Under the pieces are notes generated by a model. That model was not told the origin of the DNA and ran no database searches. It saw only the letters and a program-made list of their open reading frames with translations. 37,753 bases of DNA from a virus (Duplodnaviria; Heunggongvirae; Uroviricota; Caudoviricetes): IMG/VR virus record IMGVR_UViG_2687453319_000001, one strand, 5' to 3'. The position numbers and the translations under genes were made by a program. The stretch's first letter is position 1; the number at the start of each line of letters is the position of its first letter. Positions 1 to 23,772 of this stretch are shown piece by piece.

Positions 1-370
1 GCGGCGTCGGGTATTACGGACTTCACGTAGCGTGGCGGGTTCGCAGGCCAGCGGCAAGACGGGCGCGGGGGAAGCGTCGATGCTTTCGCCAGCCAGTAAG
101 CGCGCGCGTCGTCTCTCAGTGGTTGATTGATCTTCTGCTGGTGCAGCAAATACGAGCGGAAATCATAGCGGGTGTCGATAGCCGGCAGCGATTCTCCGGC
201 CAGCAGGGCGTTAAGCTCATCGAAGAAAAGCGTAAAGCTGGAGGCATCCATAATCAGCAGGTCAATATTGACATGGAGGCGGTGGCGATTGTCCGGCAAG
301 AGCGTCAGCTGAAAATCAAACGTTTCGCCGATTTCCACGCGTAAAAGACGGTGGCTCAGGTGATGCGCCG
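1..370 (-). CDS. Partial host gene: NRPS heterocyclization (Cy) domain fragment (yersiniabactin/pyochelin-type synthetase-like), continues off the left edge
   Basis: Minus-strand frame open from ~455 to position 1. Translation ...[46 protein letters not shown]...[12 protein letters not shown] has the Cy-domain DxxxxDxxS signature (DLLIMDASS). A G5 run at 67-71 shifts the frame; the adjacent frame continues [11 protein letters not shown] (LPxxPxLPL motif). Upstream boundary uncertain (345-455). Confidence 0.5.
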
Positions 371-371
371 C

Positions 372-404
372 GCGATAAATGCACTCTATCTTGTGCGATA
401 AATG
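372..404. repeat. Two direct copies of GCGATAAATG (372-381, 395-404) near the prophage/host junction; candidate terminal transposase-binding repeats
   Basis: Exact 10-bp direct repeat 23 bp apart, located between the host NRPS-like frame and the invertase gene end. Confidence 0.3.
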
Positions 405-438
405 GCATCCACGCGGCGTTTCATTATTTGAAAAAGAA

Positions 439-19878: not shown

Positions 19879-19880
19879 TG

Positions 19881-20701
19881 TTATCCTCTCAGTTCCTGTT
19901 GTGCCAGTGGCTGAAGCGTACCCTGATAGCGGGCCAGGTCGGGACGGTATGCTGCCCCCGGTGCATAAGACCAGCCGACGTCGGTGGTCACCTTCGTGGT
20001 GCCGGTATTAAAGGTGGCCACGTTCCGCATTTCGCCGGTTTTCTCTGAGACCAGTTTCAGTTCCTGGCCCATGGCAGAGCCGGAGCTGATAACCTTCAGG
20101 CCACGGGCACGTACATCCGCCGCACTCAGGGCAATCACACTACAGCGGCAGCGCCAGCCGTTCGGCGGGTAAAATGCCTGCCAGAACGGGTCATCCCAGC
20201 GCAGCACCAGACCATGCAGCGCCAGATGGCTCCTGCGGGTATGGCTGTCGTTGATGCCGGTATACATCCAGTACGGCCTGTCGTCGACGTTTTCCATCTG
20301 TTCCGCCCAACGACCGGCGCTGTAGAGTACGGACATATTGGTGCGAAAGATGGTATCGAGCCGCCACGGACTGCCCTGCTGAATGGTGACCGGCTTACCC
20401 GTTACCGGGTCAGTCGTGTCACGTGGTCCCCACCATCCCTTACGCTTCAGCACCGGCTCCAGCTCCTGCCGGAACCAGCGATCGGTTTTTCCTTCATCGA
20501 CAGCCTGCTGCAGTGCCCGCGAATATCTTCCAGGATATCCAGGCGGGTCACTTTAGCAACGGTAAAGGCGCGGGCATGGGCCTCCTGCCACATTTCTTCC
20601 CAGTCCCAGGTAATCTGATACCCTTTGGACTTCAGGTAACTGACTGCCCGCTTCGGGGGAAGCGTCATGCAGTACGCCAGTTCAGCCGTTGTCACGCTCA
20701 T
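19881..20701 (-). CDS. Head morphogenesis protein (Mu gpF / SPP1 gp7-like), apparent frameshift
   Basis: Two ORFs (...TVAKVTRLDILEDIRG and ALQQAVDEGKTDRWFRQELEPVLKRKGWWGPRD...) join if the C3 run at 20516-20518 were C4; start (20701 or 20728) overlaps the portal gene end. Confidence 0.75.
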
Positions 20702-22178
20702 GCAGACGTCCCCGGATATTTGCCACAAAGAGAATACGGGCCAGCCGTTCCTGCAGATCGTCCGTGTTCATCTGAGGGTAGAGCTCCGCCAGTTCGCCCA
20801 GCAGCTCAGTCGGGTTAACCCCGTTTTCGACCCGCTTAAACAGAGGTGCCAGGACGGGTTCCAGCGTGCCATTTAACACACCTCCGTTCATCAGAATGTC
20901 CAGCGCGTCGTCAAGCTGCTGCTGAGCCTGAATATCGGCATCAATCGCCTCGGCAAATGACAGCGGCAGCATGTTATTCTGGCGTTCCGACGGTGATGTC
21001 TCGTCAATATCGCCGTCCTGCAGTTGGTACTCACGCTTAAAGTATTGCGGGGTCAGACGCAGACCCGCCCGGGTGAGTTTTTCGTCGCGGGTGGCGCGGG
21101 TGTCATCAATGGTCTCCTGTTCCCACATGGCCCAGACCGGACACGGCACATCGCCGAAGTTCAGGGTGACCACCGTTCTGATAACCTGATTCACTGCTGC
21201 CTGAATGATGTCCGCATCCGCATCGCGGATATCAGCCGTTACCTCCAGCCCGGCCTGTGCAGAGGCCTTGTTACTGTTCGCTTCCGTGGTCTGATTCTGA
21301 CCAAGTAATGCAATGGAGATCTCACTGCGTGACAGTGTGATCAGCTCGCGGAATACCTCGCTGCTGTCCGCCTTACCATCCGCGGCTTTGAGTTCGATGC
21401 TGCTGTCATCGGGGATGGTGGCCACCGCGTCCTCCACCATCTGCTCCATGGAGTCCAGCAGTTTTTCAATCTCTGCATCATTTGCACCCCTCGGGTGCTT
21501 ACCGATCACCCACGGGGAGCCAAACTTTTCGGCAAAGCGGAGCCAGAATTTCATCCCGCCTTTCTTGAAGGCGACCGGCCAGAAGCACATGGACAGGTCC
21601 GGGAAACCGTAAGGATTGTCATACGAGGCATCCTGTGCCGGCACCACGAATTTTGACGGTGACAGCAGCTCACCCTCCACACCCGCATCACGCGCCCGGA
21701 AGCGCAGGCAGTTGTCCGTATCAAACTGAAACCACTCAGGCGGTTTGCCGACAATATCCGTCACTGCCCACGCCCTGACCGAACGGCCCCACATGATTTC
21801 ACAGGGCTGATACCCGTAGAGCACGGCATCACTCATCTCACCGATGATGCGGGACAGATCCAGATCGTCGAGCATGTCGCGGATGAAACGGAAGACCCGG
21901 GCAGAAGCGTGACCGCGCTCCAGTCCACGCTCCAGTGATTTGAGCGCTGCTTTACGTCTGCGGATACAGCCCCCAACCAGCGGGTCGGTGCGCAGTTCGC
22001 GGTAGATACGGATATCCCGTCCCTGAGCCTTGAGAATGGGATCAGGATTGGGCAGATACATGCCCAGTCCGTAAAAGTCGATCGCGCGGCTGCGGGAGGC
22101 AATCTGCGCGGTCAGTGATTTCTGAGGCTCAGAAAAAGCAACAAATTCATCGGGTGAAACCCAGATACCCCTCGCCAT
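20682..22178 (-). CDS. Portal protein (Mu gp29-like)
   Basis: 498 aa directly downstream of the large terminase, ATG overlapping its stop (TGATGG). Confidence 0.8.
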   Translation of the reverse strand: MARGIWVSPDEFVAFSEPQKSLTAQIASRSRAIDFYGLGMYLPNPDPILKAQGRDIRIYRELRTDPLVGGCIRRRKAALKSLERGLERGHASARVFRFIRDMLDDLDLSRIIGEMSDAVLYGYQPCEIMWGRSVRAWAVTDIVGKPPEWFQFDTDNCLRFRARDAGVEGELLSPSKFVVPAQDASYDNPYGFPDLSMCFWPVAFKKGGMKFWLRFAEKFGSPWVIGKHPRGANDAEIEKLLDSMEQMVEDAVATIPDDSSIELKAADGKADSSEVFRELITLSRSEISIALLGQNQTTEANSNKASAQAGLEVTADIRDADADIIQAAVNQVIRTVVTLNFGDVPCPVWAMWEQETIDDTRATRDEKLTRAGLRLTPQYFKREYQLQDGDIDETSPSERQNNMLPLSFAEAIDADIQAQQQLDDALDILMNGGVLNGTLEPVLAPLFKRVENGVNPTELLGELAELYPQMNTDDLQERLARILFVANIRGRLHERDNG

Positions 22179-23772
22179 CAGAATCCCTCCAGCATACGGG
22201 CCGCCTGACGACGACGGCGTGAGCTTGCCTTCACCGGCCCTTTGTTAATTTCACGGCTGGCGAAATACGCCAGCGCCAGTGCGATGGCTGAATCCCCGTG
22301 GCGTTTACCACCGTCAGCCTTTGCTTTTGAGCGTTGCTCCGGTACGCGGGGACACCGTTCACCACCTGAACGGCCCGCAGGTCATCCAGTGTGTCTTCAT
22401 CCTTTGGTAAGTCCACCAGGTTACCGTCTTCCAGTGCAGCTTTGACCGGAGGCATATGCTCCCGGTACCAGCCTTCGGTTGGCATCACCTGCTGAACCCG
22501 GCCGGAGCCGTAGCGCTGCATGGCGTATTCAGCCAGATAGGCACCATTACCACGGGCATCAAACGCTGCACCCAGCAGACCGGGCAGGCCATCCATCAGA
22601 TACCAGGTGATTTGCTCCTGCTGTCTGAACGGCACGTTACGCAGCTCCAGTACGAATGGCACGCGTCGTACCAGGTTCTTCTCCTGCAGCAGGGGATAGT
22701 CCACCGACAAATCACCGCTACGGCCAAAGTCGCGCCCCAGGAAAGAGCGGGCATCAGTGGGGAGTGCCTCCAGCAAGGGTTTCAGATACTCATCAAGCCA
22801 GTCCTGCGTCTCGCGGAAGCGAACCTCATCAGACAGCAGTTCATAACCTTCCTTGCAGGTCAGACGCAATACCGGCGTATCAGCGGACATGCGGGACTCT
22901 ATCAGGGCACGGGACAGCCAGGCACCGCCACCGTTGGCCGGAATACAGTCAAGCTCTTCGGATGCGCCGGCACCGTAGAATTTGTACACCGATGCCATCC
23001 AGGCCTGCTCGGATGCCTCCGACCATTCCTTCCCGGTGCGCAGACAGACGCGCCGGAACAGCCCCTCAGATACGGCTTCCCGGAAAGTGATGCGATGTAT
23101 GCTGCCTCCCTGACGTCCGGCACGGATATCCCCGATAAGCGTATTGAACGGATTGTCGTCACCGTCATGGGTGGAGATAACGCGTACCTTTCCCCCCCAG
23201 ATAAGCATCGCCAGCGCCGCTTTCAGCAGTTCGTCCAGTTGCTCATGGAACGCCGCTTCGTCGATAACAATAATACCCTGACGGCCACGCAGGTTAGACG
23301 GGCGGCTGGAGAGCGCAACAATACGAAAGCCGGAGTCAGGAAATTTGATGGTGTAAGTCCTGATGTGTTTGTCGTCGTCGTCCTCTTCCCAGAATCCTTC
23401 TTCAATTTCACTGGCCGCATAGTTGAATGCCCGTGCCCACATCGCACACGCCTGAATGTATTCGACGGTCATGTCCTGGTTATAAGCGATGTAATACACA
23501 TTCATCCCGCCTGCTGGCGCAGAAGAGGCGGCGGTCAGTACGTTATCGGATGCCTCAGCCCATGTAATACCGGTACGACGGCTCTTTTCTATCACCTTAA
23601 GCGGAGAGGTGTCTGCCACCCAGCGCTGCTGGTAAGGCAACAGAACGGGAGGAGCATCCAGCGCCGAGGTATCAGGCAAAACGGGAGCAAGGTTATTCCT
23701 CCCGTCCATGGGACTCATCCCTTCGGGGCCACCGCCAGCGGCGTTTAAAATCACTCCGGATGATTTTGTCAT
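22178..23772 (-). CDS. Terminase large subunit (Mu gp28-like), apparent frameshift near the 3' end
   Basis: 513-aa ORF with an acidic ATPase region (VIDEAAFH Walker B-like). The last ~35 codons (...GKRHGDSAIALALAYFASREINKGPV...MLEGF) are in another frame ending at the portal start; break lies near 22318-22360. Confidence 0.8.

Follow-up and report, generated by a model that had tools for sequence, protein, structure and literature searches.

The window, by which we mean the whole stretch of 37,753 nt that was analysed, begins with 358 bp of E. coli irp2 and continues as a Mu-like prophage. Nine of its genes are broken by 12 single-base contractions of short homopolymer runs, and the same genes are intact in the reference genomes to which it was compared. 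This raises the question of whether a defective prophage was sequenced or whether the bases are missing from the sequence and not from the DNA of the cell.

Comparison with intact copies of the prophage

Two E. coli genomes aligned to the window over its full length. Eco889 carries the prophage at the same irp2 insertion, and in AVS0750 the same prophage is inserted in yehY. Against Eco889 (37,400 aligned bases) there were 12 single-base gaps and one SNP. All the gaps were deletions in the window and were located in G/C runs, and no insertion or other indel was found anywhere in the 37.4 kb. AVS0750 gave the same 11 prophage gaps and one SNP, which differed from that of Eco889. The chromosomal copies of the prophage, with 99.97% identity, include the rve transposase, AAA+ MuB-like protein, Gam, Mor, Mu F and portal-like genes and the invertible tail fibre segment, and differ from the prophage in the window solely by the 11 contractions and one SNP. 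The prophages of Eco889, AVS0750 and B20123 and the phage PhiKM (PQ738613) are all Mu-like (Bcepmuvirus-like) E. coli transposable prophages with the same gene order as the window. PhiKM was 97-99.6% identical to the window over three aligned blocks, which jointly cover most of it, whereas the low-GC cargo block beside the repressor was not alike. Nine sites had an unambiguous alignment to PhiKM, which has the longer run at all nine.

At the 12 sites the runs were 3-5 nt long in the window and 4-6 nt long in the references, each being exactly one base shorter than in Eco889, AVS0750 and, where alignable, PhiKM. The prophage and the contractions, which are private to the window in comparison to these references, are as follows, with the strand of the affected gene.

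359-37753: Mu-like transposable prophage, continuing beyond the right end of the window, from comparison with intact copies in other E. coli genomes
67-71, minus strand: contraction 1, G5 (G6 in the references), irp2/HMWP2 remnant with condensation domain (window 1-358/359), gap against Eco889
3197-3200, minus strand: contraction 2, C4 (references C5), about codon 500 of the tail fibre gene 2700-4691, from alignment and ORF comparison
4472-4474, minus strand: contraction 3, C3 (references C4, PhiKM also C4), about codon 74 of the tail fibre gene, from alignment
4587-4591, minus strand: contraction 4, G5 (references G6), about codon 36 of the tail fibre gene, leaving a 44-aa stub
6644-6647, minus strand: contraction 5, C4 (references C5), about codon 21 of the GPW/gp25 baseplate gene 6359-6705, from alignment
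10991-10995, minus strand: contraction 6, C5 (references C6), about codon 605 of the tape measure gene 9591-12801, from alignment
11120-11124, minus strand: contraction 7, C5 (references C6), about codon 561 of the tape measure gene, leaving a 579-aa fragment
12966-12969, minus strand: contraction 8, C4 (references C5), codon 110/111 of the tail assembly chaperone gene 12959-13293 (Phage_TAC_7), product lengthened to 138 aa
13582-13585, minus strand: contraction 9, C4 (references C5), about codon 31 of a 93-aa gene 13391-13671 between the tail tube and chaperone genes
18852-18854, minus strand: contraction 10, C3 (references C4), about codon 119 of the head maturation protease gene 18091-19205 (phrog_976, E = 2e-163)
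20516-20518, minus strand: contraction 11, C3 (references C4), about codon 63 of the Mu F-like minor head protein gene 19881-20701 (Phage_Mu_F)
22348-22351, minus strand: contraction 12, G4 (references G5), about codon 458 of the terminase large subunit gene 22178-23718 or 23772 (phrog_2)

A first-pass annotation, made from the letters alone, had listed ten frame breaks, and in the alignments to the references all ten were present, at or a few bases from the positions it gave. The tail fibre break that it placed at 4470-4471 exists, the exact run being the C3 at 4472-4474, and the G4 run of contraction 12 falls inside the interval of 22318-22360 given for the terminase. Its estimate of at least ten contractions holds, and the full count is 12, because two more of the same kind had been overlooked, one in the chaperone gene (12966-12969) and one in the 93-aa gene upstream of it (13582-13585). 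As it had predicted, adding one base at each run restored an uninterrupted ORF, identified as the intact ORF of the references, and the protein families that it named were found: irp2 condensation domain, Phage_fiber_2 and Collar, GPW_gp25, PhageMin_Tail, phrog_976, Phage_Mu_F and phrog_2. It had also proposed comparison with closely related prophage genomes as a check, and both Eco889 and AVS0750 have the longer runs and intact genes.

The run of contraction 2 occurs, with identical context of 6 nt on either side, at two further places in the references (reference-segment positions 1086-1090 and 2684-2688), where it is uncontracted. The flagging of the tape measure gene as incomplete in Eco889 and B20123 is a matter of annotation, since in this gene Eco889 has the same DNA as AVS0750, where it is annotated as intact at 1070 aa.

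Three other ways of reading the breaks were set aside. The references are not over-called, as the longer runs are shared by hundreds of genomes and by a sequenced phage, and open frames result from these runs alone. The three tail fibre contractions, which sum to -3, do not compensate each other, as the intervening stretch is out of frame and contains stops, the first after 44 aa. Programmed frameshifting in the chaperone and tape measure region (12.9-13.6 kb) was rejected, since the references have longer runs and separate intact ORFs there; moreover, a deletion in the DNA mimics a +1 shift, whereas tail chaperone genes use -1.

Base, length and context of the affected runs

The contracted share of the G/C runs increased with run length, from 3 of 165 four-base runs (1.8%) to 5 of 41 five-base runs (12%) and 4 of 6 six-base runs (67%). 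None of the 294 A/T runs of at least 4 nt was contracted, including 33 six-mers and three seven-mers (Fisher P = 2.5e-5 for G/C against A/T runs). As 2.4% of the reference bases lie in G/C runs of at least 4 nt, the probability that 12 of 12 random deletions would fall in such runs is about 4e-20. Sequence context also had an effect: runs of at least 5 nt that are followed by GG were contracted in 5 of 8 cases, in comparison to 4 of 40 other runs of that length (P = 0.003). Nine C-runs and three G-runs were affected, a strand ratio indistinguishable from the 138:75 background. The implied accuracy of the window sequence is about Q35, or approximately one error per 3 kb.

All 12 events are located to the left of position 22,352. 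In the right-hand 15 kb no contraction was found among 58, 7, 2 and 1 G/C runs of 4, 5, 6 and 7 nt, respectively. This asymmetry (post hoc P about 0.007) is not predicted by a uniform error, and is partly explained by the right-hand part having no run of at least 5 nt followed by GG.

Mutations in the cell would have to account for the same pattern. Real -1 slippage at G/C runs in the prophage and in the already broken irp2, for example in a mismatch-repair-deficient lineage, would leave a defective prophage. Frameshifts in mismatch-repair-defective E. coli are typically homopolymer indels, which arise at rates that vary with run length (PMC8510543). In addition, all of the affected genes are dispensable to the host and irp2 was inactivated beforehand by the insertion, so the window would be free of host selection. 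However, mismatch-repair-defective E. coli gave 30,061 substitutions and 5,324 small indels (PMC8510543). In such a mutator spectrum substitutions, mainly transitions, outnumber indels by about 5-6:1, whereas the observed ratio was 1:12. Expressed as indels to substitutions, this is 12:1 against about 1:5.6, and at least 12 indels among 13 differences would arise from the mutator spectrum with a binomial P of about 1.5e-9. There were 12 deletions and no +1 event, and no A/T run was affected despite 36 A/T runs of 6-7 nt being available. A decaying prophage would be expected to have built up lesions of mixed type, from substitutions and indels of differing size to IS insertions and gene loss; here a single type of lesion was found, the gene content and order of the prophage were fully kept, and about one SNP separated it from intact copies. 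As a single SNP in 37.4 kb distinguishes the window from Eco889, which has the same insertion, there was almost no time for 12 independent frameshifts. The same contractions are also found elsewhere in conflicting combinations, concentrated in massively fragmented assemblies, as described below. Altogether we consider genuine decay extremely unlikely.

The first-pass annotation had argued against decay from the uniformity of the -1 events across phage and host genes. The events are uniform, but the argument is weaker than it was put, as the host DNA comprises 358 bp with one event; it is weakened further because this single event lies in an irp2 that had already been destroyed by the insertion.

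The contractions bear some likeness to contingency loci, in which slipped-strand phase variation changes a G/C tract by one base and thereby switches a reading frame off. Contingency tracts are usually longer, belong to a single dedicated gene or a handful of them, and both gain and lose bases. In contrast, the changes in the window affect nine unrelated genes at once, each of 12 short tracts having lost one base on a nearly substitution-free backbone.

The same contractions in other public sequences

Several of the contractions were detected again in other assemblies. The 138-aa form of the chaperone (contraction 8) was present on 242 public contigs, and the megabase-scale ones among these all had a shredded prophage. 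Six chromosome-scale GenBank assemblies with this form were viewed, and at all eight loci shown the prophage was broken into many fragments (dozens of ORFs), with two prophage copies of one genome breaking differently. One assembly with the 138-aa form had 134 gap openings in 19 kb, all of them deletions, and shared 4 of the 10 window sites that it covered. The exact 579-aa tape measure fragment (contraction 7) was found on 19-20 other contigs, including GCA_900448555.1. We also scored three other contractions, by pattern search, in six other assemblies, every one of which had been chosen for carrying the contraction at 11120. The six carried differing subsets of the three, and all four combinations occurred at site pairs; therefore the contractions recurred independently.

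The contracted alleles were nearly absent from RefSeq complete genomes: contraction 8 was found in 0 of 634 and contraction 4 (G5) in 1 of 589, and a further comparison gave the contracted allele in at most 1 of 615 (one record at at least 99% identity). For irp2, the 80-mer with G5 had an exact match in 14 of the 2265 complete genomes carrying the segment, while 2250 of the 2265 were non-exact (98.8% class, consistent with G6). A 152-nt pattern that covers the two tape measure contractions had no exact match in viral, GTDB-representative or metagenome contigs. In an exact look-up of ten fragments encoded by the window, five were absent from the protein collection, including the truncated terminase, GPW, F-like and 93-aa products, and therefore the window's own assembly is probably not indexed in that collection.

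Part of this recurrence could have another origin, with most of the breaks being errors and a small number, perhaps just one, reflecting true slipped-strand alleles circulating in E. coli. Six-base tracts are the candidates here: tail fibre G6 (codon 36), tape measure C6 and irp2 G6. In the RefSeq genome Ec-23 (GCF_060473355.1) the contraction at 4587 is present in a prophage in which the other genes are all annotated as intact, and thus at this one site the contraction may be a real slippage allele. The exact 44-aa tail fibre stub (contraction 4) has a RefSeq WP accession and occurs on 265 public contigs, the irp2 G5 allele is carried by the 14 RefSeq genomes mentioned above, and in three Logan assemblies the tape measure contraction is accompanied by neighbouring genes called as intact. 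On the other hand, error would be expected most of all in tracts like these, the longest G/C runs at 6 nt, and four of the six such runs are contracted in the window alone. The sole irp2-G5 genome that was inspected has irp1, irp2 and two more genes flagged as frameshifted within 40 kb, and no site is contracted in Eco889, the nearest relative sharing the irp2 junction. We therefore find such a mixed origin very unlikely, and give only a slight chance to the longest tracts (tail fibre G6, tape measure C6 and irp2 G6) being genuine slippage hot spots whose recurrence is in part real polymorphism. If they were, natural populations of E. coli would be able to turn off yersiniabactin synthesis or the tail genes of the prophage reversibly.

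Probable consensus error and the state of the prophage

The preference of the first-pass annotation for systematic sequencing or assembly error over decay is supported by four independent lines: the one-base deletions, all in G/C runs and with a single substitution beside them, the G/C-specific dependence on run length, the recurrence in other assemblies and the near-absence from RefSeq complete genomes. Judged from these sequence comparisons, the 12 frame breaks are very probably consensus errors and not mutations, and we infer that the bases were lost in the reads and not in the cell. The indels are confined to homopolymers, are biased to G/C deletion and far outnumber the substitutions, and the same sites fail in other low-accuracy assemblies. 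The method used would have under-called short G/C homopolymers by one base, at a rate that climbs steeply as runs lengthen and is raised in C(n)GG contexts. The source appears most likely to be a long-read assembly that was unpolished or of low coverage, and PacBio CLR would fit the signature best.

In PacBio data, most systematic errors consist of the loss of one G or C from a homopolymer of 4-6 nt (PMC8574707). The long-read under-calling described for PacBio CLR and Nanopore with ARAMIS resembles the window in its single-base, mainly G/C deletions in runs of this length, in the resulting frameshifts and false pseudogenes and in affecting a minority of runs, and it persists at high coverage (PMC8574707). 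The E. coli data of ARAMIS itself were mixed, with A/T insertions as well as G/C deletions (PMC8574707), whereas the window has G/C deletions only. The C(n)GG preference and the event-free right-hand 15 kb of the window are likewise absent from that description (PMC8574707).

Artefact proteins from these runs have repeatedly been deposited in public protein collections, where they can mislead clustering and homology searches. If the error rate estimated for the window holds genome-wide, the source assembly would contain about 1,500 false frameshifts, and at that rate it would need polishing ahead of any analysis of pseudogenes, defence systems or prophage viability. The frame breaks exist in the sequence and almost certainly do not represent a real biological feature. 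Most likely the cell carries an intact Mu-like prophage in irp2 that matches the Eco889 copy fully or almost fully, and its apparent pseudogenes are probably artefactual. Going by the alignments, the prophage would be best annotated as intact and probably functional, and not as a cluster of pseudogenes.

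Prophage layout, sites and variable regions

The features of the window needed here are as follows.

1-358: 3' remnant of irp2 (yersiniabactin NRPS HMWP2)
~359 to right end of window: Mu-like transposable prophage
Up to ~26.7 kb, minus strand: prophage late genes
From ~29.5 kb, plus strand: prophage early genes (rve transposase, AAA+ MuB-like protein, Gam, gp16)
Adjoining the early genes, minus strand: HTH gene, putative repressor
439-1011, minus strand: serine recombinase (Resolvase + HTH_7)
1083-1556, plus strand: Collar-domain C-terminal cassette 1 of three alternatives
2177-2689, minus strand: Collar-domain C-terminal cassette 2 of three
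End of fibre gene: Collar-domain C-terminal cassette 3 of three

The yersiniabactin NRPS gene irp2 was split by the prophage (window 1-360 / 359-37753). When window 1-25000 was compared by megablast with 5,426 complete RefSeq E. coli genomes, 338 covered at least 80% of the query. The prophage of E. coli Eco889 occupies the same irp2 junction, and those of AVS0750 (in yehY), B20123 (adjoining yehI) and Ec-23 (downstream of aroA) lie elsewhere, as is expected of a transposable phage. Judged from sequence, the identical prophage at the irp2, yehY, yehI and aroA sites indicates that the element is, or recently was, actively transposing. The sequenced Escherichia phage PhiKM (PQ738613, Bcepmuvirus) showed 97-99.6% identity over three aligned blocks that together span most of the window.

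A low-GC (43-46%) cargo block (window 26806-29436) separates the lysis genes from the putative HTH repressor. Its ORFs of 158, 196 and 328 aa gave no Pfam match and no convincing PADLOC match. The gene set of PhiKM differs here and includes a Dam methylase. The block may be a hot spot for morons or defence genes.

Around the cassettes, 1073-1303 is repeated in inverted orientation at 2469-2699 (92%) and 2986-3203 (90%), and 2424-2689 and 2938-3203 form a direct repeat. Window 439-3203 has the appearance of an invertible segment for the tail fibre, a predicted host-range switch comparable to the Mu G-segment or a shufflon, here with more than two cassettes. Long in-frame tandem repeats were also present in the tail fibre gene (3369-4508; seven Phage_fiber_2 repeats with units of 168/336 nt and identity as high as 98%) and the tape measure gene (10192-10991; unit ~261 nt). 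Copy number differs, or gaps occur, in these regions in PhiKM and other assemblies.

Twelve one-base contractions

Window 1-37400 aligned to Eco889 in a single piece with 13 differences, namely 12 one-base gaps and one SNP. Window 359-37753, compared with AVS0750, again showed all 11 of the gaps that lie in the prophage, together with one SNP, not the Eco889 one. Each gap was a base absent from the window within a G or C run, and the coordinates of all 12 runs were checked directly in the window sequence. PhiKM had the longer run at all unambiguously alignable sites (n=9), indicating that the longer state is ancestral. The ten frame breaks listed in the first-pass annotation were all found within a few bases, and two further sites brought the total to 12.

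Contracted runs: position, length in window and in references (Eco889, AVS0750), gene with number of events, and presence in the first-pass annotation.
67-71; G5, G6; irp2 remnant (one event); listed
3197-3200; C4, C5; tail fibre gene (three events); listed
4472-4474; C3, C4; tail fibre gene; listed as 4470-4471
4587-4591; G5, G6; tail fibre gene; listed
6644-6647; C4, C5; GPW/gp25 gene (one event); listed
10991-10995; C5, C6; tape measure gene (two events); listed
11120-11124; C5, C6; tape measure gene; listed
12966-12969; C4, C5; Phage_TAC_7 chaperone (one event); absent
13582-13585; C4, C5; 93-aa gene (one event); absent
18852-18854; C3, C4; head maturation protease (one event); listed
20516-20518; C3, C4; Mu F-like protein gene (one event); listed
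22348-22351; G4, G5; terminase large subunit (one event); listed, within 22318-22360

All 12 events fell in coding sequence and broke nine genes, each uninterrupted in the references; the chaperone product was lengthened from 111 to 138 aa. Pfam and PHROGs bore out the family labels assigned earlier. In the RefSeq records of Eco889 (locus L001, 21996-25208) and B20123 (locus L004, 22103-24847), the tape measure gene is tagged 'incomplete' or split. At the DNA level Eco889 matches AVS0750 exactly across this gene, which in AVS0750 is annotated as an intact 1070-aa protein, and the tagging is therefore an annotation inconsistency rather than a lesion.

Run bias and recurrence in other sequences

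Tallied on the reference sequence, contractions affected 3/165 four-mers, 5/41 five-mers, 4/6 six-mers and 0/1 seven-mer among G/C runs, and none of the 294 A/T runs that reach 4 nt or more, including 33 six-mers and three seven-mers (G/C vs A/T, Fisher P = 2.5e-5). Since 2.4% of bases lie in G/C runs of 4 nt or longer, 12 of 12 random deletions would fall inside them with P ~4e-20. With every run oriented as a C-run, 5/8 runs of at least 5 nt followed by GG were contracted vs 4/40 others (P = 0.003). The motif AGCCTTCCCCCAAACCA served as an internal control; one of its three copies in the tail-fibre repeats was contracted, which fits a stochastic process on error-prone runs. All events lay left of 22,352, and window 22352-37753 had no contraction among its 68 G/C runs of 4 nt or longer (P ~0.007 given the run-length distribution, in a post hoc test). 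This is explained only in part by sequence context: that region has no C(n)GG run of at least 5 nt, and its six- and seven-mers precede A or T.

Besides the window (11062-12801), 19-20 other contigs encoded an identical 579-aa fragment of the tape measure protein (STF01793.1), and six of these contigs (L007-L012) were scored at four neighbouring sites. As these six were selected for the 11120 contraction, the informative sites are the other three.

Contraction states at sites 13582, 12966, 11120 and 10991, in that order (1 = contracted).
Window: 1111
L007: 0010
L008: 0010
L009: 1010
L010: 0110
L011: 0010
L012: 1011

All four combinations occurred at 13582 and 12966, and this conflicting matrix points to repeated independent origin of the contractions. 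The 138-aa chaperone form was accompanied, at all eight loci shown (six chromosome-scale GenBank assemblies), by a prophage in dozens of fragments, with the tape measure gene broken into 4-6 pieces and splits in the portal, sheath and baseplate J genes. One such genome held two prophage copies with different breaks, and one such locus had 134 gap openings over 19 kb, all deletions, sharing 4/10 covered sites with the window.

Among RefSeq complete genomes the chaperone contraction was found in 0/634, fibre G5 in 1/589, irp2 G5 in 14/2265 and either tape measure contraction in at most 1/615 (one record at >=99% identity, an upper bound). The one irp2 G5 genome inspected had irp1, irp2 and two more genes flagged frameshifted within 40 kb. 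The intact chaperone, protease, GPW, F-like and 93-aa proteins occurred in at least 1,000 contigs each and the intact tape measure protein in 318. A mixed origin, with most events being error and a real slippage allele at the fibre G5 tract, would account for the RefSeq genome Ec-23, which carries fibre G5 in an otherwise intact prophage; we consider it highly improbable.

Error versus mutation

Indels and substitutions stood at 12:1 in the window vs Eco889, to our knowledge an inversion of what every known E. coli mutation spectrum shows. Mismatch-repair-defective mutation-accumulation lines of E. coli yielded 30,061 substitutions vs 5,324 small indels (PMC8510543), a ratio under which 12 or more of 13 changes would be indels with P ~1.5e-9. 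The shared Eco889 junction and the single SNP in 37.4 kb leave next to no time for twelve frameshifts to have arisen independently.

The loss was G/C-specific, deletion-only, length-dependent and context-sensitive, with one base per run, and the events imply a window accuracy of ~Q35. The contractions were private to the window vs the references, yet recurrent in other low-accuracy assemblies. According to ARAMIS, systematic PacBio errors persisting at high coverage are mostly single G/C deletions in homopolymers of 4-6 nt and yield false truncations (PMC8574707). One base per run would have been lost in base-calling or consensus, outside the cell, probably on a long-read platform. PacBio CLR would best match the signature, because short G/C runs were affected while A/T six- and seven-mers were untouched.

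The first-pass reading of systematic sequencing or assembly error rather than prophage decay is thus supported by the type ratio, the recurrence, the fragmented company, the near-absence from RefSeq and the ARAMIS match. Its extension across phage and host genes holds in that one host event exists; confined to 358 bp of host DNA and to a gene that the insertion had already destroyed, that event is by itself no proof of a genome-wide problem. On these sequence comparisons the twelve frame breaks are very probably such error and not a biological feature, and with the loss placed in base-calling or consensus the real prophage is most likely intact. The assembly should be polished, and the nine broken genes should not be called pseudogenes. 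Artefact proteins from these G/C runs are widespread in public databases, where protein collections held the exact 138-aa chaperone product (window 12877-13293) in 242 contigs, the 579-aa tape measure fragment in 19 and the exact 44-aa fibre stub (WP_001425272.1; window 4557-4691) in 265.
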